From an uncultured Azospirillum sp. (GTDB lineage Bacteria > Pseudomonadota > Alphaproteobacteria > RF32 > CAG-239), in the NCBI GenBank assembly GCA_900542055.1, contig UQMA01000001.1:8079-72078 (forward strand): 64,000 bases of DNA. The letters run 5' to 3'. Positions 2,509-64,000 of the stretch are shown one piece after another (within the stretch, counting starts at the first letter, position 1; each line of letters starts with the position of its first letter). The translations under genes were made by a program, and so were the position numbers. The notes beneath the pieces were generated by a model. The model had not been told where the DNA came from, made no database searches, and worked only from the letters and a program-made list of their open reading frames with translations.

Positions 2509-4709
2509 TGAGAAAAATTTTTCGCAACATTATATTAGCTTTTTTGCCGGCATTGTTTGTTTGCCCTGTATTTCTGCACGCCGAGCAAACTAAGAATTCT
2601 CAGCCGATTTTTTTCAGCGCTGATGAAGTTGAAGAAGACAGCCAAACAAAAATTATTACGGCACGCGGAGATGTAAATATTGTTCGCAACGGTGTTACGC
2701 TAAAAGCCGATACTCTGACTTTTGACAGAAAAAATGATGTATTAATCGCCGATGGGAATGTCAGTATACGACAGCCTGACGGAACAACAGTTTTTTCAAA
2801 AAACGCCCGCTTGAGTGATAAAATGTCAAAAGCAACTATTACGGATGTCAAAGCAATTTTAGCAGATGAAAGCCGTTTAGCCGCCAAGCGCATAAAACAA
2901 ACATCAAACAAAGACAAACACTTCTTTTATGCAGTCTATTCTCCGTGTGATGTTTGTCAAAATAATCCCAAACCATTATGGTCAATTAAGGCTCGCAAAA
3001 TTACCCATGATGCCGACAAACACGATGTTTATTATCGAAGCGCTTTTTTGTCGGTAAAAAATGTACCGGTTTTATATACACCATTTTTCTCACATCCTGA
3101 CCCAACAGTAAAACGCCGCAGCGGCTTTTTGCCGCCTTCGCTTGCCAGCAACAATTATCTTGGTTCAGCTGTTGAAATGCGTTATTTTATTGATTTAGGA
3201 GATCATGAAGATATTACGCTCACCCCGATTTTGAGCAGTGACCAAAATATTATTTTCGGCGGCACATACCGCAAAATGATGTACAACGGTGATTTAAATA
3301 TCAGCGGCACCTTAATGGAAGACAAAAACACCAATGAAACCCGCGGAAATATTGTTGCTAAAGGCCGTTATGAAATAAATGATTTATGGCTGGCGAAGAT
3401 GGATATTAATTATGCTTCTGACGGAGCGTATTTAAAAGATTTATCTTTACCGGGAAGAACTGAAACATGGCTTACCTCATCAGTTTCTGCCGAACGTTTT
3501 GAAGGGCGCGACTATGCTGCAATTGAAGGCTTTTCATACAAACTGGTCAGTTATTCGCTGCGCACGTCTGATATAAATGCTTTTGAACAAAGAGAATACA
3601 GCAAACCTTATATTTTACCGTTAGCCACTTATGAAAATATAGGAGAATCAAATTCCATCGGAGCATATTTCAAAAACACGTTCAATATGGCTTCAATCTA
3701 TCGCGAACGCGACGAAACACAAACCCAGCGCGCCACAATGATAAATTCATGGAACTTGCCTTATACCAGCCCGTTCGGCGAAAAATATCGCTTTATGGCT
3801 TCCGTAAAATCTGATCTTTATTACATAGATAATTACTACAATCCTTATAACCAAAATTACACAGGTGCTACGGGACGCATTTTTCCGCAGGCCGGCGTGG
3901 AATGGCGCTTACCTTTTGTAAAGGCAACCGAAACCTCACGGCAAATTCTCGAACCAACCATTGTTGCAGTTGCTGCGCCGAACGGAGGCAATAAAATCGA
4001 CAAAATTCCGAATGAAGACAGCTTAAATGCCCAACTGGATGACAGTAATATATTGGACATTGACCGCTATTCAGGATATGACCGCAACGACACCGGCAGC
4101 CGTATAAGCTATGGATTAAACTGGAGTGCATACGGAAATATTCTCGGCAGAACATCTTCATTTTTCGGGCAGAGCTACTATTTTGAGAAAGATGAAAGTT
4201 TCACCCAAAGTTTAGGAGATACTTCGTCGCATTTCAGTGATTATGTGGGCAGAATTTTTGCCGCTCCGAATTCTTATATTGATTTTAATTATCGTTTTCG
4301 CCTTGACAAAGATAATTATGACCTTAAATACAGCGAATTAAACACGCGTATCGGACCGCAAATGTTTTGGGCTTATATTGCATATACTTCAATAAAAGGA
4401 CGCAAAGAAAAAGGCTCAGATTCTGATTTATATTTCTTTGATGACTATAAAGAAAGAAAAGAACTTTATACATCACTTAATGCTAAGGTTTCACGCGACT
4501 GGACTGTCGTCCTTTATAACCGCCAAGATTTATCAAAAGAAAATAACACCTCTTTGGAACATGGCGGAAAACTAATTTATGAAGATGAATGCTTTAAACT
4601 TATTTTCAACACCCATAAATATAATTCAACAGATCCGGATTATGACGACGGATATGAATTTTCTGCAACTTTCCTGCTTAAAACATTAGGAAGCGTGGGC
4701 TCAGAATAG
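2508..4709 (+). CDS. lptD: LPS assembly outer-membrane protein LptD (OstA)
   Basis: Signal peptide MRKIFRNIILAFLPALFVCPVFLHA, OstA N-domain, then a large beta-barrel. The ORF-track start at 2463 is probably a 5' extension. Confidence 0.85.
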   Translation: MRKIFRNIILAFLPALFVCPVFLHAEQTKNSQPIFFSADEVEEDSQTKIITARGDVNIVRNGVTLKADTLTFDRKNDVLIADGNVSIRQPDGTTVFSKNARLSDKMSKATITDVKAILADESRLAAKRIKQTSNKDKHFFYAVYSPCDVCQNNPKPLWSIKARKITHDADKHDVYYRSAFLSVKNVPVLYTPFFSHPDPTVKRRSGFLPPSLASNNYLGSAVEMRYFIDLGDHEDITLTPILSSDQNIIFGGTYRKMMYNGDLNISGTLMEDKNTNETRGNIVAKGRYEINDLWLAKMDINYASDGAYLKDLSLPGRTETWLTSSVSAERFEGRDYAAIEGFSYKLVSYSLRTSDINAFEQREYSKPYILPLATYENIGESNSIGAYFKNTFNMASIYRERDETQTQRATMINSWNLPYTSPFGEKYRFMASVKSDLYYIDNYYNPYNQNYTGATGRIFPQAGVEWRLPFVKATETSRQILEPTIVAVAAPNGGNKIDKIPNEDSLNAQLDDSNILDIDRYSGYDRNDTGSRISYGLNWSAYGNILGRTSSFFGQSYYFEKDESFTQSLGDTSSHFSDYVGRIFAAPNSYIDFNYRFRLDKDNYDLKYSELNTRIGPQMFWAYIAYTSIKGRKEKGSDSDLYFFDDYKERKELYTSLNAKVSRDWTVVLYNRQDLSKENNTSLEHGGKLIYEDECFKLIFNTHKYNSTDPDYDDGYEFSATFLLKTLGSVGSE

Positions 4710-4720
4710 AGGAGAAAAAT

Positions 4721-5797
4721 ATGAAAAAAATATTGCTGACATTATTAGGATTACTTATGTCTTTTCCCGCTCAGGCGCAATTTGCTTCGGGATATGCTCC
4801 GCGTTATGAAAATGAACCAGCTGAAACTGATGCAGAAGAAAATAGCGAGCCATCTTCTGTTTTTCAAACACAGTCGCCTCAAATGTCAGCTCCGCGCCCG
4901 CAGCCGATTGTTCCGCAAAATATAAAAAAACCGACGCCATACACAGGAAACATCAGAATTTTAGCTTCCGTTAATGGAGAAATTATTACCACAGAAGATA
5001 TAAACAACCGCGTCCGTGCTTTCTGCATGACAACAGGTATTCCTTATAATGATCAAACAAAATTGTTGATTATCAACAAGGTAATGCAAAACACCATTGA
5101 TGAAAAACTTAAATTACAAGATGCCGTAAGCAACAAAATAGAAATCAGCAAAAACGACGTTGACGATGCTATAAAGAGTTATGCAGCAAACAACAAAACC
5201 ACTCCCGAGCATTTGAAAAAAATGTTAAAAGAGCATGGCGTAAGCGAAAGTATTTTTCGTGAACAAATGAAAAGCGATTTGGCATGGGTGCGTTTGGTTA
5301 GAAACAAAACTTCAAACGATACCGTTACCGAACCGGAAATTCAAGAAGCTCTTGAATTAACAAAAAAAGATATGAGCAAAACCAAATATATGGTTTCTGA
5401 AATAGTCATCGACAGCAAAAATGCAAAAAACATCTTCGGTTTATCACAAACTTTGCGTCAAGATCCTCGTTTTGAAATGTATGCAGCACAATTTTCACAA
5501 AGTCCCAGTGCTTCAAGCGGCGGTCGTTTGGGCTGGATTAATGCTGGACAACTTCCGGAACAGCTTGACAAAGCTTTATCAAAAATGTCAGCAGGAGAAA
5601 TTTCAGATCCTATTCTTTATAACAACGCATATCATATTTTTCGCGTTGAGCAAAAATTCGATCCTTCAAAAGATAGTCTGCCAGAGCCGGATTCACGTGC
5701 AATTGCTGAAATGTTATCAGGACAAAAAACCGAACGTTTTGCCGCCAGACATTTACAAGATCTCCGTCAACGAGCCGCTATTGAACTGAAAGAATAA
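4721..5797 (+). CDS. surA: SurA-like periplasmic chaperone / parvulin PPIase
   Basis: Signal peptide. SurA N-domain followed by a parvulin domain (GGRLGWINAGQLPEQLDKAL, YHIFRVE). Synteny lptD-surA-ksgA. Confidence 0.75.
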   Translation: MKKILLTLLGLLMSFPAQAQFASGYAPRYENEPAETDAEENSEPSSVFQTQSPQMSAPRPQPIVPQNIKKPTPYTGNIRILASVNGEIITTEDINNRVRAFCMTTGIPYNDQTKLLIINKVMQNTIDEKLKLQDAVSNKIEISKNDVDDAIKSYAANNKTTPEHLKKMLKEHGVSESIFREQMKSDLAWVRLVRNKTSNDTVTEPEIQEALELTKKDMSKTKYMVSEIVIDSKNAKNIFGLSQTLRQDPRFEMYAAQFSQSPSASSGGRLGWINAGQLPEQLDKALSKMSAGEISDPILYNNAYHIFRVEQKFDPSKDSLPEPDSRAIAEMLSGQKTERFAARHLQDLRQRAAIELKE

Positions 5798-5800
5798 AAT

Positions 5801-6625
5801 ATGCTTCTCTCTTTGCGTGATACTGTTAACTTTTACGGTCTTATGGCCGATAAATCTCTCGGACAAAACTTTCTTCTTGATTCAAATATTACCGACAAGA
5901 TTGTTCGGTTAAGCTTGAGCCATCAGGGGTTGAAGGATTTCAGCGCTTATAATATGATTGAAGTCGGCCCTGGTCCGGGAGGATTAACCCGATCTGTTTT
6001 AGAACAAAATCCTTTATCTTTGACCGTAATTGAAATGGATTCGCGTTGTGTTCGGATTATGGAAGATCTGAAAAATGAAACGGATTGTCCGATGAATATT
6101 GTAAACGGCGATGCTTTAGCTTTTACCCCAAGTAAAAATATTTCTTCTCCGCGACAGATTATCAGCAATCTGCCTTATAATATATCCGTACCTTTATTAA
6201 TAAAATGGTTGGAAGAAATAAAAAATTATTCAGCTTTAACTCTGATGTTTCAAAAAGAAGTTGCCGAAAGAATAATGGCCTCCACCCGCTGCAAAGATTA
6301 TGGGCGCGTATCTGTTTTAGCACAGCTTAGCTGTAAAATCGAAAAATTAATGGATTTAAATCCGGAATGTTTTACGCCTGCGCCGAAAATTTGGTCAAGC
6401 GTTCTGCTTTTCCGCCCGCTTGACAAGCCTATTACTCAAGAAGAAAGAACAAAAATAGAAAAAATAACTTCTCTTGCTTTTGGACAAAGACGGAAAATGC
6501 TGCGTCAAAGTTTGAAATCTTTGCCCGATATACTAGGCAAACTTGAACAGCTTCAAATTGCTCCGACAGCACGTGCAGAAGAACTAACACCGCAGCAATT
6601 TTTGGATTTAGCGCATTTATATTAA
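5801..6625 (+). CDS. rsmA: 16S rRNA (adenine1518/1519-N6)-dimethyltransferase RsmA/KsgA
   Basis: LGQNFL, EVGPGPGGLT and NLPYNIS motifs. Confidence 0.9.
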   Translation: MLLSLRDTVNFYGLMADKSLGQNFLLDSNITDKIVRLSLSHQGLKDFSAYNMIEVGPGPGGLTRSVLEQNPLSLTVIEMDSRCVRIMEDLKNETDCPMNIVNGDALAFTPSKNISSPRQIISNLPYNISVPLLIKWLEEIKNYSALTLMFQKEVAERIMASTRCKDYGRVSVLAQLSCKIEKLMDLNPECFTPAPKIWSSVLLFRPLDKPITQEERTKIEKITSLAFGQRRKMLRQSLKSLPDILGKLEQLQIAPTARAEELTPQQFLDLAHLY

Positions 6626-8650: not shown

Positions 8651-8733
8651 AGTCTTTCTCCGTTAACATATATTTTATAATAGCAAAAACAGTGATTTTA
8701 CGCAATTACAATATGATGACAAAAAAATGAAAT

Positions 8734-9645
8734 TTAATTCGGAATTTTGTGCTTTGCCAAAGGATGGTTTTCTCTTACTTCTTCGCACAATTGCTCCGAT
8801 ACAATATGCGTATATATCTCCGTTGTCGAAATATCTTCATGACCCAGCATTTTTTGCACGCTTCGCAAATCTACCTTATGATTTAACAAATGAGTAGCAA
8901 ACGAGTGGCGCAAAACGTGAGGCGAAATTTTTGCCGGAGAAATTCCAGCCTCTGCTGCTATTTTTTTCAAATCCTTAAAAAAAGCATCTCTGGTTATATG
9001 TCCGTCCGCGGCGAGTTTTGACGGAAACAGCCAAATTGACTTTTCACCTTTTAGATAATATTTCCGAGCAGCCAAATAATCTTCAACCGTATTCAGAGCC
9101 GATGATGCCGCCGGAATAATCCGCTCTTTGCCGCCCTTGCCTAAAACAATAACCTGTTCTTTTTTAAAATTAACATTTTTTTCAGGCAAGCCGACCAGTT
9201 CAGATACACGCAGACCGCAAGCATACATAAGTTTCAGCATTGCCGCCAAACGCAAGCCGACAAAACCTTTTTTAGCTTCGGCAATGTCAATCATACGCCC
9301 TATTTCTTCTTCTGTTAAAAACTTAGGTAAAGGTTTTTCCTTTTTGGGAGAAAGTACATCAGCCGCCGGATTATCTGCAATTTTGCCTTCGGAAAGCAAA
9401 AATTTAAAAAATTCCCGTACAGCTGAAATCTTACGCGCAATAGATTTACCGCTGTATTTTTTGTCGCCCAAATCTTTAATAAAATCGGCAATTTCATTTG
9501 CCTTCACCGTTGATATATCTTGATTAACGAATTCATAAAACTGTTCCAAATCTTTTCGATATGCAGCGGCTGTAAGCGGTGACAGCCCTTTTTCAGCAGT
9601 AGCGGCGTCTAAAAAAAGATAAATATAATTTTTATCAGAAGACAT
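8734..9645 (-). CDS. xerD: Tyrosine site-specific recombinase, XerC/XerD family
   Basis: C-terminal catalytic motifs HVLRHSFATHLL...LGHEDISTTEIYTH. The choice of xerD over xerC is tentative. Confidence 0.8.
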   Translation of the reverse strand: MSSDKNYIYLFLDAATAEKGLSPLTAAAYRKDLEQFYEFVNQDISTVKANEIADFIKDLGDKKYSGKSIARKISAVREFFKFLLSEGKIADNPAADVLSPKKEKPLPKFLTEEEIGRMIDIAEAKKGFVGLRLAAMLKLMYACGLRVSELVGLPEKNVNFKKEQVIVLGKGGKERIIPAASSALNTVEDYLAARKYYLKGEKSIWLFPSKLAADGHITRDAFFKDLKKIAAEAGISPAKISPHVLRHSFATHLLNHKVDLRSVQKMLGHEDISTTEIYTHIVSEQLCEEVRENHPLAKHKIPN

Positions 9646-53674: not shown

Positions 53675-54391
53675 TTAAAGCTCTGAACGCACCTTAAATT
53701 CTTTTTTGACCATAACCGCAATAACACTCAAAATAAAACTGATTATCAGCAAAAAAGAAATCATAACAAAAATAAAAAAGAATATCCAGGAATACGGATA
53801 AAGATGCATAACCGGACGCGCTATTGTCGAAGCCCAGCCGTCCAAAGTAAAAATTTGCACCAAACTGAAAACAGCAGACCACAAATCTTCAAAAGCAGGT
53901 ATGTCATCACCGAACATAGCCACCGACATCACGCCGAACACATAAACAAACACGCCCGAAACAACTGTCATTGCCATAAAATTAGGCAATATAGATATCA
54001 TTATATTAATAATGCTCTTCAACGGTTTAAAATGGCTGACATAGCGCAGCAACCGGAACAAACGGAATGTACGTAAAATTATAAAACAACTGGCCACAGG
54101 CATAGATGAAACGGCAATTACGCTCAAATCAAACACATTCCAGCCCGATTTAAAAAAGCGCGGACCGTAAGCATACATTTTCAAGAGCATTTCCATAATA
54201 AAAATAGCCATACAAAGCTTATCGAGCAAAAACATCGTTTTCATAAAATCAATATTATAAAAACCGATGGTTAGCATGCCCAAAGCAATTGCATCCATAC
54301 ATATAACAAACATTATCAAGTAGTCAAAATTATTGCCTTCAACTACTTTTCGAGCTTTTGAACGTTCTTCTGCAATATCAATAATTCCCAT
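53675..54391 (-). CDS. Voltage-gated-ion-channel-family protein (NaChBac-like single 6TM domain)
   Basis: S4-like RTFRLFRLLRYVSHFKPLK. Pore FTLDGWAS, compared with NaChBac TLESWAS. Confidence 0.65.
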   Translation of the reverse strand: MGIIDIAEERSKARKVVEGNNFDYLIMFVICMDAIALGMLTIGFYNIDFMKTMFLLDKLCMAIFIMEMLLKMYAYGPRFFKSGWNVFDLSVIAVSSMPVASCFIILRTFRLFRLLRYVSHFKPLKSIINIMISILPNFMAMTVVSGVFVYVFGVMSVAMFGDDIPAFEDLWSAVFSLVQIFTLDGWASTIARPVMHLYPYSWIFFFIFVMISFLLIISFILSVIAVMVKKEFKVRSEL

Positions 54392-54405: not shown

Positions 54406-55074
54406 TTAAAAAATAAAAAACAAGACCATACCAGCGGCAACAGCCAAAGCCGGTCCGAAAGCTCCGGCTTTTTGGCGTTTGACAATAGAATATACGCCGA
54501 ATAGCAAGCATGAAAGCAAAATCGTGTAAAGAAGTCCTTCAACACCGAGCCAAGCTCCTATTGCTGACAAAAGTTTTATATCTCCGCCGCCAAAAGCTTC
54601 TGTACTGCGCCACAGCATCAATAAAGTTGCTATAACCGGAATAACATAACCGGCCAAAGCCGCTACTGAGCTTTCAAACGGACTCAAAAAAGGATGAAAT
54701 GAAGCCGCAAAAACAAAACCGCAAATCAACAGCGGCACCGTTAATATATCCGGCAGCAACAAAATTTTACAATCGATTTCAGTAAGCAATATCAGTGTCC
54801 AAATAAAACCGAGCCACCACCAGACATTTTCGTTTTCTAAACGATACAAAAACAACGCCGTCGTCAATGCCGTAACTAAAGCATACAAAAAACTGCGCAT
54901 TTGGTATGCTTTTAATAGTTTTCTATATTTATCGTTTCGCCGATTTGATGTTTTGTTTTTTTTCACCAAGCGATAAAGAGCATAAGCCGGAGTTGCTGGC
55001 ATAAATTTTGCAAACCGCCGCGCCATATACGGCACCAAAGCCCCGAATAAAAATCCTGTAAAAATATAAATCAT
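54406..55074 (-). CDS. A24-family prepilin peptidase
   Basis: Two conserved Asp regions (EIDCKILLLPD, GGGDIKLL). Polytopic membrane protein. Confidence 0.7.
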   Translation of the reverse strand: MIYIFTGFLFGALVPYMARRFAKFMPATPAYALYRLVKKNKTSNRRNDKYRKLLKAYQMRSFLYALVTALTTALFLYRLENENVWWWLGFIWTLILLTEIDCKILLLPDILTVPLLICGFVFAASFHPFLSPFESSVAALAGYVIPVIATLLMLWRSTEAFGGGDIKLLSAIGAWLGVEGLLYTILLSCLLFGVYSIVKRQKAGAFGPALAVAAGMVLFFIF

Positions 55075-56759: not shown

Positions 56760-57300
56760 ATTTTTCCACGGCTTTAACTTCTGGTATATAATTTCGAATA
56801 ATTTTTTCAACTCCGTCTTTCAACGTTCTTTGCGCATACGGACAACCAACGCATTTTCCCTGCAATTCAACATAGACTATACCATTTTCTATTTTTTTTA
56901 CAGCAATATCTCCGCCGTCTTTTTGAATAGCCGGTCGAATTCTGGCGTTCAGCAGTCCGTTGATTTTATGTTCCAGCTCTTCAGCGCTCATAGTTTTATT
57001 TTCCAAAACTATTTCTTGTCCGGAAATTAAAAAATCCATAATTTCAGCTAAAATCTGCGGTTTTAAAATATCCCAAGAACCGCTGTCATTTTTAGTAACA
57101 GAAATACAATCAGGTGTAATCATCACCGATTTTATATCACCTAGATCAAACAAATTTTCAGCCAAAGGAGAACGACGGATTGACTTTGCATCGCTGTATT
57201 CGCTGCTGTTTTTAATATCTAATTTTTTTTCAGGATAAAAATGCATAAGATTATTATCCGATGACATTTGCGTTTCAATTCGCATTTTGTTTTTCTCCAT
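56749..57300 (-). CDS. NifU/Nfu-type Fe-S cluster assembly protein
   Basis: C-terminal GKCVGCPYA (CxxC) NifU domain. Confidence 0.75.
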   Translation of the reverse strand: MEKNKMRIETQMSSDNNLMHFYPEKKLDIKNSSEYSDAKSIRRSPLAENLFDLGDIKSVMITPDCISVTKNDSGSWDILKPQILAEIMDFLISGQEIVLENKTMSAEELEHKINGLLNARIRPAIQKDGGDIAVKKIENGIVYVELQGKCVGCPYAQRTLKDGVEKIIRNYIPEVKAVEKYEN

Positions 57301-58279
57301 TTAAATGCATATTAACTTTCATAAGTAAATTTTCCGCTTTTAAAACATAATAACCCAAACTTGTTAAATGATTAGCTTTAAATTTTGCTTCCAACTCGCC
57401 GTTAACAACCACATTTGGATTAATTTCAACGCTGTTTTGCAGCGACCGCAGCATCGTCGTCCATTCCGAATACAAATTTTCAGCCATTAACACCTGTTTA
57501 AAATCGCGTCCTATTTTTCGCAAAACCATCATATACGCATAAATCCGCCCTTGATTGAAATAAAAAACGTCATCAGCTTTACTGTCAAACCAACTGTTTC
57601 CACCTTCTCTGACTTCCGTTTCAATACTTAAAATTGCTTTATCCAAACCTCTGATAACTGCTTTATTTATGTCAAAAAGATTATTTGCGCTATGATTCCA
57701 AAAACACTTTTCCTCTTTCAGAGCCGTATTGACATCTTTCAGATATTTGCGAGCCTTTCTGTACTGACTTGAAGACGAAGGAGCGGTTTTTAGTTTGTTA
57801 TCGGGAGCAAACAGCCAAACATTCCCTGGATATGCCAGCAACTGTGCGCTTTCATTCAGTTCCGCTATGTTTTTATCATTTTCAAGGCATTGAATTTGAT
57901 GTGATAAAACTTTTATTATATCTGAAATTCCTTTAATAATTCCAGTTTGGAAATTAGGCATATTATCCAAACTGGAAGCCGGAAACAAAAAAGGCAGATT
58001 TGCACTCCAAATATGCTCATTAACTTCACGATTAATTAAATAAGCTGCCATTTCTAATCCTTCGGACTGCGATGAATCTAAATACGCAAAATCATAATCC
58101 GGAGTACGATCTATTTTTTCACTGACTATTCCACCCAAAGGATAATACAGAGTAACCACAAGTAAAATTGTTCCGATAAAAGCTTTCGGCCATGAATTAA
58201 ACAATTTTTTTATCAAAGCAAAACATTTAGATAATAAAATCATTATAAATTTAAATATTTGCAAAAAATATTGTTTCAT
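57275..58279 (-). CDS. Hypothetical N-terminally anchored protein (DUF2333-like)
   Basis: The start MKQYFLQIF overlaps the murJ stop (ATGA). Confidence 0.45.
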   Translation of the reverse strand: MKQYFLQIFKFIMILLSKCFALIKKLFNSWPKAFIGTILLVVTLYYPLGGIVSEKIDRTPDYDFAYLDSSQSEGLEMAAYLINREVNEHIWSANLPFLFPASSLDNMPNFQTGIIKGISDIIKVLSHQIQCLENDKNIAELNESAQLLAYPGNVWLFAPDNKLKTAPSSSSQYRKARKYLKDVNTALKEEKCFWNHSANNLFDINKAVIRGLDKAILSIETEVREGGNSWFDSKADDVFYFNQGRIYAYMMVLRKIGRDFKQVLMAENLYSEWTTMLRSLQNSVEINPNVVVNGELEAKFKANHLTSLGYYVLKAENLLMKVNMHLNGEKQNAN

Positions 58280-59919
58280 TTGGATCTCCTTTTTCGCAAA
58301 GCTCGTTTTATAAAAGCAAAAACATCTGTTACACCGCATAATTTTATGAGAAACAAGAACAAAATACCACCCAAAGAACATATCACGCCTAAAAGCAGCA
58401 ATTTAGCTATTGTTGAAAAACTCAACCAGTCTTCAAATAAAAATTCTATTCCTTCTTTTTCAATATACAGAAAAACGCCCATTATAAAAGAACATCCTAT
58501 TATCTTGGCGATTCTCGAGCATAAATCTGCTGAAAAGCACCAATATTTTCTTTTTTTCAAACCATGGACATATTGATAAAAAGATACAAAAGCCGCCAAA
58601 GTTGTCGCCGCTGCTATACCTACGTGTCCGAATGGTTTCATAAGCAACAAAGCAAACAACAAATTTGCAAAAAGCACAACTACGCTATATTTAACCGGAG
58701 TTTTAGTGTCACAGCGTGCAAAAAAATTAGGAGTCATAGCTTTAACCATTACATAAACAGGCAAACCAACGGCATAGGCAATAACTGCTTTTGCCGTCAT
58801 CACTGTTTGCAAGGTTCCAAATTTACCATGTTGAAACAAAATATTGACAAGAGGCGTTGCCAACACAATCATTATTACCGCCGCCGGTATTGACATCAAA
58901 GCGCCATATTCTATTGCCTTATCCTGTGTCTGATTCGCTTCAGAAATTTGTCCGGCTTTTAGTTGTTTTGACAATATCGGCAGCAAAGCAACTCCAATAG
59001 CTGCTCCAACGACGCCTAAAGGCAATTGCTGCAATCTGTTCGCGTAATACAACCAAGAAATAGCTCCGGTTCCAACCAGCGAAACCAAAATAGTGTCAAC
59101 CATCATATTAATCTGATAAATTCCAGCGCCGAACACGCCCGGAGCAATACGTTTAAATAGTATTTTTATTTCATTGGATTTCATTAAGTTTAAAACATCT
59201 TTTTGCGGATAAATAAAGACATCTTGTCTTTTTAGAAAATAGTGCAGCCATATAACTTCCAGCACTCCGGCAGCAGGAATTCCCAAAGCAATGCGATAAG
59301 CCGGCGTTGCAATAAAAGGCATAAGAACAAAAACCGAAGCAATCATAGTCAGATTCAATATAACGGGAGCAGCTGCCGGAGCAGCAAACTTGTTTAGCGA
59401 GTTTAATATGCCTGATTGGAAAGAAACTAATGAAATTAGTAACAAAAAAGGAAATGTAATTCTTGACAAAAAAACGGCTAATTTTATTTTTTCTGCATCA
59501 TCTGAAAATCCCGGAGCCAAAAACATAACTACTACCGGCATCAATATTTCCATAATTAGCACAAACACCCCGACAAACAAAGCCAAAACTGAAATTGCCT
59601 GCGCTGCGAATTTAATGGCGTTTTCTTTACCGTTACCGACTAATTTTTGTGAAAAAATCGGAACAAAAGCCGCCGTAAAAGCCCCCTCTGCAAAAAGACT
59701 TCTAAATAAATTCGGTAATTTAAAAGCTACAAAAAAAGCATCGGAAACAGCTCCTGCCCCCAAATAATTTGCAAGAACGACATCGCGGAAAAAGCCTGTA
59801 ATTCTGCTGATTAGGGTCCAACCGCCAAATGTTGTTATAGATTTCAATAAAGACATTTTCTTCTCTGGACAAATTATCAAAACAAAGGCATTATATGCCA
59901 CAAAACAGAATAAATCCAA
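58276..59919 (-). CDS. murJ: Lipid II flippase MurJ (MviN)
   Basis: 547 aa, 14 TM. MLSLLKSITTFGGWTLISRITGFFRD N-terminus. Confidence 0.9.
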   Translation of the reverse strand: MDLFCFVAYNAFVLIICPEKKMSLLKSITTFGGWTLISRITGFFRDVVLANYLGAGAVSDAFFVAFKLPNLFRSLFAEGAFTAAFVPIFSQKLVGNGKENAIKFAAQAISVLALFVGVFVLIMEILMPVVVMFLAPGFSDDAEKIKLAVFLSRITFPFLLLISLVSFQSGILNSLNKFAAPAAAPVILNLTMIASVFVLMPFIATPAYRIALGIPAAGVLEVIWLHYFLKRQDVFIYPQKDVLNLMKSNEIKILFKRIAPGVFGAGIYQINMMVDTILVSLVGTGAISWLYYANRLQQLPLGVVGAAIGVALLPILSKQLKAGQISEANQTQDKAIEYGALMSIPAAVIMIVLATPLVNILFQHGKFGTLQTVMTAKAVIAYAVGLPVYVMVKAMTPNFFARCDTKTPVKYSVVVLFANLLFALLLMKPFGHVGIAAATTLAAFVSFYQYVHGLKKRKYWCFSADLCSRIAKIIGCSFIMGVFLYIEKEGIEFLFEDWLSFSTIAKLLLLGVICSLGGILFLFLIKLCGVTDVFAFIKRALRKRRSK

Positions 59920-60014
59920 CCGATTTTTGAATTAACTGCATTTTTTTATTGACAAAACTTTCAAATATTGGGATAATAGACAAAAAAGATGGGAAATTAT
60001 TAAGGAGAGCCCAA

Positions 60015-60374
60015 ATGACCAAATTACTAAACGAAAATAACGCCAAACATATTTTTTCTTCGGAAAATGGCGGCGCTCATAGTTTTATGAGTAAAGGCGG
60101 CGTTAAATATACAAGTGCAGCAGGAATTGAACCTGCTGACGCAAATAAATCTTACATCAGCAATGTGACCATCTCAAAAGGAGGAACTTCTTGGGTGAGT
60201 TCTATGACAAAAGCTCCTGAATATTTGGCTAAATTGCGCTATGATACCAAAGAACTTTCTCACGGCAGTTTTGATAGTCAAGATAAAAGCTTGGCTCAAA
60301 CAATGGTTAAAAATGCTGAAAAAGAAATAGCCCAAAATGCCGTTTTGAAATCCCGTCAAGCCTATACTATGTAG
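60015..60374 (+). CDS. Hypothetical protein (119 aa)
   Basis: SD aaggag 7 nt upstream of the internal ATG. The ORF-track start at 59949 is probably an extension. Confidence 0.4.
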   Translation: MTKLLNENNAKHIFSSENGGAHSFMSKGGVKYTSAAGIEPADANKSYISNVTISKGGTSWVSSMTKAPEYLAKLRYDTKELSHGSFDSQDKSLAQTMVKNAEKEIAQNAVLKSRQAYTM

Positions 60375-60389
60375 TTTCTCCTTAAAAAA

Positions 60390-60421
60390 TCAAAGCCGTT
60401 CTGAAAAGAGCGGCTTTTTTA
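60390..60421 (+). terminator. Hairpin agccg...cggct with T-run
   Basis: After the 60015..60374 gene. Confidence 0.6.
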
Positions 60422-60750
60422 TTGCATACCTTGCAACCCCCGATTTTAGCTGAATGCAAAGGTATCATTAGCCTCAGTTCCAAGCTAACTAGGCGTAATC
60501 AGACATGATTGTTTATATAATATTATTATAGATATCCCCTGTAAACTGGAGGTTTCAGCAAAGCTTGCAATAAACCATATTGATAAAAATACGCCTTAAT
60601 TAAAATCTTCCTAAATACAAGTAATATTAATTATATTATGTTTCCCCTAAAAACTTACAAGTTTAACATTTGAAGGAAATGTTAATACCATTATCTAAAA
60701 ACGTCACATTTTAACGATAAATTTTCACTAACTTATCAACGTTCGAACCA

Positions 60751-60783
60751 TAAAAAAACGCTCCATATCGGAGCGTTTTTGTA
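60751..60783 (-). terminator. Hairpin cgctcc-atatc-ggagcg with A-run and T-run
   Basis: Downstream of the 897-aa repeat-protein gene. Confidence 0.75.
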
Positions 60784-60801
60784 TTAGACCACCGTTAACA
60801 G

Positions 60802-63495
60802 CTATTTTCTGTTTTTAGCAGGCATAGCCTCTGGAGTTTTGGCAACCGGATTATCAATATATGATGATACAGGTTTACGCCATACTTTTTGTTCCGGTTT
60901 TGGTGCTGCTTTCGGGAAAGCTTTTCCGCAAATTTCTACACCCAAACTACGCATAGCTGTTTCCATCGGCAGGAACAGATCTGTTTCCGGATCTTGTGCA
61001 CGATGCGATAAACCGGCAACGCGTCCTTTTTCATCAATCAGAGAGGTGCCAATTGTTGCCTTTGGATTAAAAGTTTCAACCACAATTTCGGCAATTCCAT
61101 CTGGAGTATAGCGATAGCTTGAAACTTTTGCAGTATTATTTAGATAAGCTTTATCATTGTCTGTTACCGGAGTCGGAGCAACATAGCTGCCTTTTGCAAC
61201 CGGAGGCAATTCAAGCGTTAACGCCAAAGGAGCATATTCAGCATGTTCGCTCAACACCAACAATGCAGTATTACGATGCGGATTCAAGCGGAAAGCTTTA
61301 GCCTTAATAGTTTTTCCTCCTGAAGTTTCAACCGTATAGCTATTATCTTCACGATTTAGCAAATCAGCTGAAGTCATAACAAATTGTTCTGAAATCAACA
61401 ATCCTGCGCCTTTTTTACCTTTAGAATTTGTAATAGAGACAATAGATTTTCTTGTTTCTTCAATTGTATCAGAACTCAAATTTGCATAGTCGGCGCGTTC
61501 TACAATACACAATTTATCTGCTTCATAGATAGCGCCCGTGGCAACAGGCTCAACAGCTGCAACACCGTTTTCAACAACACCTGAATTTTCAGTTACCGGC
61601 GGATTTTTAAAATCAACAGCTACCACACCTGCTTCTTTAACACCAGAATCTTCGGTTACAGGAGGATTTTGATATTCAATTGCTACAACCCCCGACTCTT
61701 TAACGCCAGAATCTTCAGTTACAGGAGGATTTTGATATTCAATTGCTACAACACCCGACTCTTTAACACCAGAATCTTCAGTTACAGGAGGATTCTTCAT
61801 TTCGACAACCGGCTCTATAGAAACAATTGCCGATTCGTTAATACCTGAATCTTCAACAACCGGAGGATTCTTCATTTCAATTACAGGGGTTGCTTTAATA
61901 ACTTTAACCTCAGTTTCAACAACAGGTTTAACAACCGGAACTTCTCTTATTTCAATCCAGCCTTCTTTTGAAACATAACCACCGGAAACAGCGCCGAAAT
62001 CTTCAACGACTTTGAATTGGCAAATGCCGCTGGCGCGCTGAATTTCCATAAGAGTCTGTTTTTGTCTTTGCATTTCTTCCGGACTGACTCGAACAGCCAA
62101 TTGATCTTCAAACCCCGGCAAATAGCGAAGATTATCGGCAGCATCGGCAAACGCACGTTGGATTAACAACATTTCGCCGTTATACTCACCTTCTTCTACT
62201 TCACCATACCCCGTTGATTCACCTTTCCAAAGAACATTGGTTTTGCTTGCATCCATCAAACGCCATGTTACCTTCATTTCAGATGAACCGTTACGGCTGT
62301 TTTCCATTTTGGCTTCATCCCAGTTATACTCATCACATACATTCATAAAATAATCTGTGATTTCAGCTGTCAAAACATATTCCGGCAAAACACTGTTTTC
62401 ATCAATACACTGTTGCGGATTTACAATCGTGTAGCAATCAGAGACCATATCTTTGAAAATTTCACCGAAGTTCATATCTTTTTCAACAATGCGGCCTTCA
62501 TTCAAAATTGCATTTTTGGTATTCCGACGGCAGCCGAAAATTCTAAAACGATAATTTCCGAGTTTGCGGGAATAAGTTTTTACATCGCCGCGGACAATTC
62601 TGAAATCGACCCACTCCATACTTAACGGAGCAAAATCTTTGCAGCTGCGAACGACTTCCTGCATTTCATATTTTTTAACACATGCCGGTTTCGGAGCAGG
62701 AACGGGTTGTACGCATGTCTGACAAGGTTTCGGAGCTACACATGTACGACAAGGAGCTTTTTGGCAAGGAGCAACTTGACGGCATGGCCGTTTGCAACTT
62801 TGGCAAGGAGTTTTTGTTTGTTGAGCGCAGTTTTTGCACGGACCGCCGCCGAAAATACTGCCGTTTTTGGTGCAGTTTTTGCACGGACCACCGCCAAAAA
62901 TACTGCCGTTTTTGGTGCAGTTCTTGCATGGACCGCCGCCGAAAATACTGCCGTTTTTATCTTTTCTTTTGCACGGACCGCCGCCAAAAATACTGCCGTC
63001 GCGGCAAGTTTCTTCTTCACCTTCAAAAACTTTCTGTCTTTCCGAACGAGATGACATAACAAATTCGGTTTCGGCTTTAGGAGTTTCATTTTGTGAAAAT
63101 TTATATTCATAAGTTTTTTCGGTTCTGCCGCGGCGTTCTACTTCCTGTTGGCTTACAGGCACCAAACGATGTTCTTTGGGCTCATCAACACTTGTCATGT
63201 GATAAACTTTTTCAGGAGCGCGACGGGTTCTTACAGCTTGCGGAGCCGGTTGCGGCTGAGCAGTAACAGGAACTTCCTGATAAACAGGTTCCGCAAAACG
63301 GGTATAAACCTGTGTCTGTGAAGAACAGTCATAATTTTTAACGGACGGATAGATAACATCCGATTGATAATTTTGGACAGGAACATATCTTGCAGAAGTT
63401 GCCTCTGGGCAGCCGCAATCTGATGCATTTGCCGCAGATATGCTCAAGACGGCTGTAACCGTCCAAGTAAACACCCTTGATATTTTATTCAACAT
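60802..63495 (-). CDS. Large secreted repeat protein (897 aa): N-terminal Cys/Pro-rich region, 4x GSIFGGGPCKNCTKN, 4x about 21-aa NPPVTEDSGVKESGVVAIEYQ, C-terminal trypsin-like (possibly inactive) domain
   Basis: Signal peptide MLNKISRVFTWTVTAVLSISAANA. The C-terminus GTSLIDEKGRVAGL sits where a GDSGGP-type motif would be. Confidence 0.65.
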   Translation of the reverse strand: MLNKISRVFTWTVTAVLSISAANASDCGCPEATSARYVPVQNYQSDVIYPSVKNYDCSSQTQVYTRFAEPVYQEVPVTAQPQPAPQAVRTRRAPEKVYHMTSVDEPKEHRLVPVSQQEVERRGRTEKTYEYKFSQNETPKAETEFVMSSRSERQKVFEGEEETCRDGSIFGGGPCKRKDKNGSIFGGGPCKNCTKNGSIFGGGPCKNCTKNGSIFGGGPCKNCAQQTKTPCQSCKRPCRQVAPCQKAPCRTCVAPKPCQTCVQPVPAPKPACVKKYEMQEVVRSCKDFAPLSMEWVDFRIVRGDVKTYSRKLGNYRFRIFGCRRNTKNAILNEGRIVEKDMNFGEIFKDMVSDCYTIVNPQQCIDENSVLPEYVLTAEITDYFMNVCDEYNWDEAKMENSRNGSSEMKVTWRLMDASKTNVLWKGESTGYGEVEEGEYNGEMLLIQRAFADAADNLRYLPGFEDQLAVRVSPEEMQRQKQTLMEIQRASGICQFKVVEDFGAVSGGYVSKEGWIEIREVPVVKPVVETEVKVIKATPVIEMKNPPVVEDSGINESAIVSIEPVVEMKNPPVTEDSGVKESGVVAIEYQNPPVTEDSGVKESGVVAIEYQNPPVTEDSGVKEAGVVAVDFKNPPVTENSGVVENGVAAVEPVATGAIYEADKLCIVERADYANLSSDTIEETRKSIVSITNSKGKKGAGLLISEQFVMTSADLLNREDNSYTVETSGGKTIKAKAFRLNPHRNTALLVLSEHAEYAPLALTLELPPVAKGSYVAPTPVTDNDKAYLNNTAKVSSYRYTPDGIAEIVVETFNPKATIGTSLIDEKGRVAGLSHRAQDPETDLFLPMETAMRSLGVEICGKAFPKAAPKPEQKVWRKPVSSYIDNPVAKTPEAMPAKNRK
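61575..61890. repeat. In-frame tandem repeat array, about 63-nt unit x about 5 (units 4-5 degenerate)
   Basis: Unit ...acccgactctttaacaccagaatcttcagttacaggaggattttgatattcaattgctaca... Confidence 0.8.
62836..63005. repeat. In-frame tandem repeat array, 45-nt unit x about 4
   Basis: Unit gcacggaccgccgccgaaaatactgccgtttttggtgcagttttt. Confidence 0.85.
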
Positions 63496-63508
63496 TATTT
63501 GTCATCTC

Positions 63509-64000
63509 CTAAATCTTATAATCCGGCGCTTTCCAACGTAAAGACAAAGCCTCGGCAATGTGTATTCTATGCAATTTTATTTCATTTTGCAAGTCTGCAA
63601 TTGTCCGAGCCAGCTTTAATGTGCGGTTATATCCTCTGGCTGAAAGTTTTACACGATTTGCGTAATTTAGCAACAATTCTTTTGCATCATCATTCATCGG
63701 AACCGATTTTTCTAATAAATCGCCCGACAACTGAGAATTGGTATGCAGATTATCATATCCAAAAGCGCAGAAACGAGCTTGCTGAATCTTGCGGGCGGCA
63801 ATAACCCTTTTCCTTATTTCAGCACTGGATTCACCCGTTGCTGTCTTAGCCATATCCCATGGGCTGACAGCGGGAACTTCAATTTGTATATCGATTCTGT
63901 CTAACAATGGTCCCGAAATTTTGGCTTGATATTCTTGAGCGCAGCGCGGGGCACGCGCACATTCTCGTGCAGGATTGCCCAAAAATCCGCAGCGGCAAGG
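63509..64000 (-). CDS. YifB/ComM-family Mg-chelatase-like AAA+ ATPase, C-terminal part (the gene continues beyond the window)
   Basis: ISGPLLDRIDIQIEVP, and the C-terminal LSARGYNRTLKLARTIADL. The frame is open to the window edge. Confidence 0.75.
   Translation of the reverse strand, partial: PCRCGFLGNPARECARAPRCAQEYQAKISGPLLDRIDIQIEVPAVSPWDMAKTATGESSAEIRKRVIAARKIQQARFCAFGYDNLHTNSQLSGDLLEKSVPMNDDAKELLLNYANRVKLSARGYNRTLKLARTIADLQNEIKLHRIHIAEALSLRWKAPDYKI

Follow-up and report, generated by a model that had tools for sequence, protein, structure and literature searches.

What is an exported protein for that carries a protease-like domain and, in front of it, two different arrays of tandem repeats? 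The question arises with a gene near one end of a 64,000-nucleotide (nt) stretch of DNA from an uncultured Azospirillum sp. (assembly GCA_900542055.1, contig UQMA01000001.1, positions 8,079 to 72,078), which we analysed at its full length and refer to as the window. The gene lies on the minus strand at 60802..63495, where the open reading frame (ORF) list gives 897 amino acids (aa) and a stop codon from an ATG start, just where a preliminary description, written by a model from the sequence alone, had placed it. The exact protein is also encoded in the human-gut metagenome-assembled genome (MAG) GCA_900753935.1, and on five contigs in total. In our judgement it is probably a Sec-exported, disulfide-rich and catalytically dead descendant of a lipoprotein protease, acting as a non-catalytic envelope scaffold or binder with variable spacers. 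Scanning one genome per species, we found relatives in 108 species and kept 80 loci; the site counts given below come from 78 complete species-level orthologues, and the counts of loci, linkers and lipoboxes from 79 species.

We begin with the C-terminal domain (aa 656-857; 60925..61530, minus strand). Searched at full length against Pfam and NCBIfam, the protein returned nothing useful, its sole matches (mtrH and TCP11) being noise. The C-terminal 248 aa alone matched Pfam Trypsin_2 (PF13365) with an E-value of 2e-5 and 25.8 bits, below the gathering score of 27.6, and a PF13365 match is precomputed for most orthologues. An AlphaFold model of the domain, built from 17 sequences, reached a predicted local distance difference test score (pLDDT) of 77, and Foldseek matched it to Rv3671c, HtrA1, MucD, DegS, HtrA2 and DegP with E-values of 3e-10 to 1e-8 and template-modelling (TM) scores of 0.57/0.70, up to 0.58/0.74. 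We regard the assignment of the predicted structure to the chymotrypsin-like double beta-barrel (HtrA/S1C) fold as sound, and the preliminary description had recognized the same likeness. The fold, the weak Trypsin_2 match and the status of an exported envelope protein are shared with HtrA, DegP, DegS, HtrA1 and MarP (Rv3671c). In contrast to HtrA proper, the window protein lacks the catalytic triad and a PDZ domain, has a different N-terminal domain and scores below the Pfam threshold, and it is thus not a member of that family; Pfam gave no PDZ match in its C-terminal part at E up to 10, and only a 40-aa tail follows the protease-like domain.

The positions of the triad were set by aligning the family profile to HTRA1 from the PDB and by a hidden Markov model (HMM) of active relatives. 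At the position of the catalytic His stands D711 (codon 61363..61365, minus strand), with Asp in 63 species, Gly in 6, Ser in 5, Lys in 2, Asn in 2 and His in none. The catalytic Asp position is N742 (61270..61272, minus strand), Asn in 78 of 78 species. The catalytic Ser position is I815 (codon att, 61051..61053, minus strand), where the orthologues have Val (44), Ile (25), Pro (3), Ala (2), Thr (2), Gly (1) or Met (1) and never Ser, and the Gly next to it, G816, is invariant. The motif TIGTSL thus stands at the position of GNSGGP, as the preliminary description had noticed, and its account was incomplete in that His and Asp are replaced as well and that the loss runs through the whole lineage. 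Judged by sequence, the domain is catalytically dead, with all three triad residues replaced in every species examined. Despite this loss its identity among orthologues is 53-78%, which argues for selection on a non-catalytic role, and the alignments indicate that the protein is under strong purifying selection. The earlier idea of a pseudo-protease binding module therefore holds as far as the loss of catalysis is concerned, and binding would be a plausible function for what is left.

Overlooked at first, a middle alpha/beta domain of 226 aa (aa 275-500; 61996..62673, minus strand), delimited by family alignments, the structure model and Foldseek, is the most conserved part of the protein. It contains six invariant Cys and the long invariant motifs WVDFR, FRIFGCR, NEGRxxEKD, PEYVLTAE, WRLMD and RAFA. 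Searching its profile against 1.84 billion cluster representatives yielded 149 matches at E <= 0.001. The approximately 40 best (E <= 1e-30; about 530-1,180 aa for those of full length) were without triad motifs, one Ser-motif match and a few His/Asp regular-expression matches being stray or partial. A lower-scoring group comprised proteins of about 430-460 aa; five of these, when scanned, matched Trypsin_2 at 98-110 bits, and His, Asp and GNSGG or GSSGG were present in the five that were read. By regular expression, 54 relatives of about 440 aa were positive for all three triad motifs, 40 of them with a lipobox. Named members are 'serine protease' entries of Alphaproteobacteria, including Rhodovibrionaceae (MCK5296163.1; MDX1711385.1, a 'trypsin-like peptidase domain-containing protein').

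An HMM of these 54 relatives aligned collinearly with the window protein, positions 27-240 of the HMM matching aa 276-489 (108 bits) and positions 232-432 matching aa 660-857 (57 bits), and it paired naHVV, rDVAL and GnSGGP of the relatives with SADLL, RNTAL and ATIGTS, respectively. The reciprocal profile search gave E-values of 1e-17 to 1e-4. Since the match to both domains is collinear, the window protein reads as the ancestor plus additions: a two-domain lipoprotein protease extended by about 250 residues ahead of the first domain, about 155 inserted before the second and 40 behind it. As far as the sequences allow that ancestor to be drawn, the alpha/beta domain at its N-terminus, predicted to have a CsgG/LptE/PelC-like fold, preceded a protease domain of S1C/HtrA type. 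Representatives with both a lipobox and a dead triad exist (P0145-P0157), and from their sequences these look like intermediate forms between the active and the dead proteins. We place the window protein, as a divergent member, in a two-domain family of Alphaproteobacteria that is unnamed and lacks a Pfam model for its N-domain; our literature search found no paper describing this family.

The window protein has the same two domains in the same order as the unnamed S1C lipoprotein proteases of about 430-460 aa, one Cys pair of the N-domain in common with them, and likewise an alphaproteobacterial host. The proteases that were read keep His-Asp-Ser, and lipoboxes are frequent among them, as counted above, whereas the window protein has neither; conversely, the window protein has gained the 250-aa Cys-rich N-terminal extension, the 155-aa repeat linker and the conserved basic tail. 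Its lineage differs from the active relatives in having an AxA-type signal peptide in place of the lipobox, a Cys-rich extension based on the conserved GSIFGGGPCxxC unit and an inter-domain linker.

What the middle domain resembles was sought by sequence and by structure. A Pfam scan of 25 members gave no family at E up to 1, and a profile search against the PDB gave no relative; we rejected matches to the Apaf-1 CARD (E 0.17-0.3) and, with a wider profile, to AT3G17980 and TIMP-3 (E 0.15-0.9) as noise. In the AlphaFold model, from 17 sequences, mean pLDDT was 66 with a core of 80-90. Foldseek placed CsgG first (E 2e-6, TM 0.40), followed by LptE, PelC, FlgT, HpaA, Cj1090c and a DUF330 protein with E-values up to 1e-3; the probability was about 1.0, yet TM scores were 0.3-0.4, root-mean-square deviations (rmsd) exceeded 10 A and the mean pLDDT was that just given. 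In sequence the domain shows a succession that we take to be typical of the CsgG/LptE/PelC fold, with EYVLTAEITDYF as a long strand, SEMKVTWRLMD..TNVLWKG as a hairpin and LIQRAFADAADNL as a helix. The outer-membrane-associated lipoproteins CsgG, LptE, PelC, FlgT-N and HpaA would thus share a predicted alpha/beta fold with the middle domain, at low TM scores, whereas the window protein has no relation to them at the level of sequence (Pfam, PDB) and no lipid anchor. We treat the likeness as a fold-level lead towards periplasm-facing, outer-membrane-associated lipoproteins, not as family membership.

Export is indicated by a signal peptide at aa 1-24 (63424..63495, minus strand), MLNKISRVFTWTVTAVLSISAANA/SD, ending ANA/SD. 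It was judged by eye from the sequence as having an AxA site for type I cleavage and no lipobox, and it is the sole hydrophobic stretch of the 897-aa protein, in line with the secretion first proposed for it. The cleavage site reads ANA/SDC, with Asp at -1 before the first Cys; a lipobox-like motif is likewise absent in 75 of the 79 orthologues, with an AxA-type site in many of those that were read. The mature protein opens with a low-complexity region (aa 25-166; 62998..63423, minus strand) in which the family alignment shows conserved C27-x-C29, NYDC57 and EFVMSS, and which has no Pfam match. Behind the first repeat array follows a basic segment rich in Cys and Pro (aa 227-274; 62674..62817, minus strand), recognized by composition and alignment, with 9 Cys and 3 CxxC and a length that differs between species. 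At the other end, a basic tail (aa 858-897; 60805..60924, minus strand; isoelectric point (pI) 10.3), ending ...KTPEAMPAKNRK, is conserved in the 78-species alignment as ..PEAM..K.RK, with P888 in 78 of 78 species, E889 in 70, M891 in 74, R896 in 75 and K897 in 75. Low pLDDT over these 40 aa suggests that the tail is likely disordered. Inspection led us to reject it as a PEP-CTERM-like signal, an LPXTG motif or a beta-signal, there being neither a hydrophobic segment nor a terminal aromatic residue.

The two arrays of the preliminary description, a 45-nt unit in four copies and a 63-nt unit in about five, were both borne out by Tandem Repeats Finder (TRF) and translation, and both lie in frame within the ORF. 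The first (aa 167-226; 62818..62997, minus strand; TRF 62827-62999, 3.8 copies, score 260) has the unit GSIFGGGPCKxCxKN, with CxxC in 3 of 4 units; these translate as GSIFGGGPCK followed by RKDKN, NCTKN, NCTKN and NCAQQ. From one unit to another, 4-11 of the 45 nt are different, and unit 2 has the same peptide as unit 3, with 4 synonymous differences in the DNA. Since the motif is present in orthologues only about 50% identical, and since units 2 and 3 keep one peptide through synonymous changes, the GSIFGGGPCxxC unit is, as far as sequence comparison goes, an old motif kept by selection on the peptide; the 45-nt unit occurs in 33 species. A Nucleoporin_FG match of the N-terminal part (E 4e-4, sub-threshold) was rejected as a compositional likeness to the GSIFGGG units, not homology.

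The second array (aa 543-651; 61543..61869, minus strand; TRF 61576-61794, 3.5 copies, score 326) encodes NPPVTEDSGVKESGVVAIEYQ in five copies and lies within an acidic linker between the domains, delimited by composition (aa 501-655; 61531..61995, minus strand; pI 4.2). Its units begin NPPV(T/V)E(D/N)SG..., the first and last copies being degenerate. The two central copies, 2 and 3, differ at 2 nt and all other pairs at 10-25 of 63 nt. The near identity between repeats that had been described therefore applies to those two copies and not to the other 63-nt pairs or the 45-nt units, and the recent expansion read from it would fit the same two copies only, the 15-aa unit being old and conserved. 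Across the 79 species the N-terminal region ranges from 92 to 390 aa and the linker from 6 to 429 aa, with in-frame arrays in 46 of 79. Linker units are of 63, 75, 84, 87, 117 or 132 nt depending on lineage, and these differences in unit and length indicate that the linker expands independently and repeatedly.

Copy number also differs between strains, as had been anticipated. Outside the arrays the window protein and eight relatives share at least 98% identity, and these nine sequences differ in length by exact units of 15 and 21 aa. Altogether 21 near-identical full-length sequences, drawn from metagenome assemblies and MAGs (ENA, Logan, NCBI), fall into 10 combinations, in which the 15-aa unit is present 2-4 times and the 21-aa unit 3-7 times, the differences always being of whole units. 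Several alleles were met on more than one independent contig, the 921-aa allele on 8, that of 918 aa on 5, that of 879 aa on 4 and that of the window, 897 aa, on 5. Because units of 45 and 63 nt are multiples of 3, changes in the arrays alter the length of the protein and cannot turn the gene off. We considered and rejected a phase-variable contingency locus with switching of frame or promoter, all alleles being in frame and the polymorphism one of length only.

Variable arrays on an exported protein would also be expected of a surface-exposed or released antigen or adhesin, whose array lengths vary under pressure from host immunoglobulin A or phage and whose globular domains bind host or microbial ligands. 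The repeats, acidic and with Pro among their residues, are like those familiar from surface proteins of bacteria, both arrays are polymorphic between strains, unrelated linker units have expanded independently in different species, and all carriers come from animal guts or rumens. However, searches of Pfam and NCBIfam and inspection of composition turned up neither a signal for translocation across the outer membrane nor an autotransporter barrel, an anchor or a known sorting motif. The protein descends from lipoproteins that belong to a periplasmic type of protease, its globular domains show high conservation and no diversification, and a single copy of the gene stands in a fixed housekeeping setting behind comM. 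We consider this explanation unlikely, and it is the alternative that survives best.

The polymorphism itself could be questioned. Assemblers collapse near-identical repeats, the central 63-nt copies differ at only 2 nt, and the compared alleles all come from metagenome assemblies and MAGs, so that the copy-number differences might be assembly artefacts and the arrays fixed in length. This alternative, which concerns the polymorphism only, is in our estimate quite improbable: the same alleles were recovered on several independent contigs, as listed above, most units differ at 4-25 nt, enough for assemblers to separate them, the arrays vary independently of each other, and species-level orthologues differ clearly in the types and numbers of their units.

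A third alternative starts from the cysteines. The protein has 28, of which 20 lie within the first 272 residues, and six CxxC fall in aa 190-261; eight are invariant, six of them belonging to the middle domain and two to the C-terminal one, as would suit a protein that folds under oxidizing conditions outside the cytoplasm. The CxxC units and the dead protease domain might together form a metal-binding or redox module, an idea compatible with an envelope scaffold or binder, and the GSIFGGGPCxxC peptide is kept despite synonymous change in the DNA. A precedent exists in MamO, a repurposed HtrA-like pseudoprotease of magnetotactic Alphaproteobacteria whose dead protease domain binds transition metals (PMC4794232). 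Both proteins are alphaproteobacterial, and in both an S1C-type domain whose active site is degenerate has been kept under selection for a non-catalytic role, MamO being a precedent for the independent evolution of pseudoproteases; unlike MamO, the window protein has no NCBIfam MamO match, no transmembrane segment or TauE-like domain and no magnetosome context, and its hosts are gut anaerobes. Against such a module, the Pfam and NCBIfam scans matched neither MamO nor any metal-binding family, in many orthologues CxxC motifs are few (1-3) and the GSIF unit is missing, so that the Cys-rich array is not universal, and periplasmic Cys may simply form disulfides. Binding of haem c by the CxxC motifs was rejected, no His following CxxC. 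We see a slim chance for this alternative. That the domain is still an active hydrolase with a non-canonical nucleophile is barely credible, for although the fold and G816 after the Ser position are conserved, along with polar residues such as Y794, R795, Y796 and D799, all three triad positions are replaced, the nucleophile site being V, I, A, M, T, P or G by species and the His site mostly Asp and otherwise G, S, K or N, and the alignments contain no invariant alternative Ser, Cys or Thr near the cleft.

A non-catalytic envelope scaffold or binder thus remains the reading that we prefer. On this model the protein would work in the periplasm or at the outer membrane, where the dead protease domain, its peptide-binding cleft retained, would bind a partner protein or peptide. 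The middle domain might dock on, or oligomerise at, an envelope component in the manner of proteins with the CsgG/LptE/PelC fold, while the repeats would serve as flexible spacers of loosely constrained length and the CxxC units and the basic tail as conserved functional elements related to a ligand. S1C domains in non-catalytic service have precedents in MamO, described above (PMC4794232), and in RsgI9 of Clostridium thermocellum, a Gram-positive membrane-anchored anti-sigma factor whose S1C-like sensor domain binds cellulose (PMC12203970). That domain (PDB 7sjy) ranked 11th in Foldseek for our C-terminal model (E 2.8e-9, TM 0.55), and RsgI9 likewise uses a protease-like S1C domain as a binding or sensor module; unlike the window protein, it has an NTF2-like partner domain and a different architecture, without repeats.

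Several points weigh against this reading. Beyond export and the loss of catalysis, all of its steps are inferred. For the middle domain the structural match is a weak one, by TM score and rmsd and by the low mean pLDDT of the model. Nearly all proteins of the CsgG/LptE/PelC fold have the lipobox that is absent here, so attachment to the outer membrane is a supposition. The copy-number alleles rest on what are presumably short-read metagenome assemblies, which can collapse repeats, and a linker as short as 6 aa means that the spacing of the domains is not critical, which weakens the idea of a 'molecular ruler'. Finally, the role of an envelope scaffold leaves the conserved linkage to comM unexplained.

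That linkage is a matter of the 5' neighbour. The preliminary description had an AT-rich non-coding region of about 420 nt preceding the gene; the region in fact lies at its 3' side, and what precedes the gene is the 3' end of comM/yifB (63509..64000, minus strand), encoding a Mg-chelatase-like AAA+ ATPase (Pfam Mg_chelatase and Mg_chelatase_C). The comM stop lies 13 nt ahead of the ATG of the gene, and an AGGAG overlaps the comM stop codon. A full-length comM from a related locus (L001) matched TIGR00368 at 550 bits. In 75 of 79 species the comM stop is found -26 to +19 nt from the start of the gene, the negative spacings stemming from over-extended start calls. At 13 loci (L040, L049, L050, L054-L058, L060, L062-L064, L070) the first in-frame ATG gives MLCR(Q/P)NR(Y/F)RR.. 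and overlaps comM by 26 nt, and the signal peptide begins at the second Met, about 12 residues further on; the automatic starts at these loci are probably too long. The order rpsF-rpsR-rplI (divergent), an unannotated ORF of 113-120 aa, comM/yifB and the gene is kept in lineages only about 50% identical (L001, L002-L004, L089), L001 holding part of this conserved comM cluster at 4113-5987; the small ORF ahead of comM has no family match. The linkage is not borne out as ancestral: the contigs of active relatives are without comM adjacency, the three that were looked up (P0163, P0170, P0184) having varied contexts, and of the dead-triad lipoprotein relatives P0146 is next to comM and P0155 is not.

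Directly after the stop codon of the gene stands an intrinsic terminator (60780..60754, minus strand) with a 12-bp stem and a T run, found by a terminator scan and with a predicted RNA fold of -19 kcal/mol (z -2.5). Given comM in front and this terminator behind, the gene closes a unit that begins with comM. The AT-rich stretch (about 60375-60801, GC content 0.31) extends past the terminator and is bounded by two convergent terminators (60392..60417, plus strand; 60780..60754, minus strand), which leave 60418-60753, about 340 nt, between them. Within it a promoter-like site on the minus strand (60545..60517, 10 of 12 matches) would read towards murJ, antisense to a small ORF, and an Rfam scan of 59800-64000 gave nothing near any gathering score, hence no known RNA family in the AT-rich region. 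The small convergent ORF (59949-60374, plus strand; 141 aa, or 118 aa from an internal Met) has the terminator at 60392..60417 as its own and no Pfam or NCBIfam match. We rejected it as a conserved partner, the ORF at the corresponding place in the P0073 lineage not being homologous; in a related lineage, L002, the similar-sized ORF in this place (8693-9001) is not homologous to it.

Other neighbours of the gene in the window are murJ and nifU. The TTG start given for murJ in the ORF list is probably over-extended, and a 368-aa ORF at 57275-58381 (minus strand), which matches DUF2333 in part (E 2e-11), shares about 100 nt at its listed start with the end of the murJ ORF. The 238-aa protein encoded at 53675-54391 (minus strand) has one Ion_trans domain (E 1e-32) and the size of a single-domain ion channel; its neighbour, at 54406-55074, is a type IV prepilin peptidase. 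We also searched the 64-kb window for another HtrA-like gene, an active one that the dead protein might regulate as MamO does MamE, and found none.

A bolder proposal would take in the comM linkage. A new two-domain alphaproteobacterial family (CsgG/LptE-like plus S1C) would have been turned, in the gut and rumen lineage, into a non-catalytic envelope component translationally linked to the recombination helicase-like ComM; this component might take part in DNA uptake as a periplasmic partner, or act as a checkpoint of the envelope, its spacer lengths differing from strain to strain and its conserved CxxC module serving in ligand binding or redox. We offer this as a long shot.

Nearly all carriers are MAGs of Alphaproteobacteria that are uncultured and live in the gut or rumen; their labels are Alphaproteobacteria, Rhodospirillales, 'Azospirillum sp.' or Candidatus Scatocola, and they presumably correspond to RF32 of GTDB. 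The gene is also found in bins titled Bacteroidaceae, Lactobacillaceae, Eubacteriales and [Ruminococcus] gnavus (L005, L034, L039, L042, L047, L048), whose contigs are probably mis-binned or contaminated.

These findings change no major concept. They do offer a clean bacterial case of an enzyme becoming a pseudoenzyme, in which active lipoprotein ancestors, dead-triad lipoprotein intermediates and exported dead descendants are all present in public data. They also bring out a domain that has no Pfam model and comprises about 150 clusters at 50% identity among the 1.84 billion representatives. Provided that long reads bear them out, the arrays, being variable between strains, could be used as natural markers when strains are tracked in metagenomes. 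For the widespread uncultured Alphaproteobacteria of human and ruminant guts, the protein would be a conserved, lineage-specific component of the envelope.

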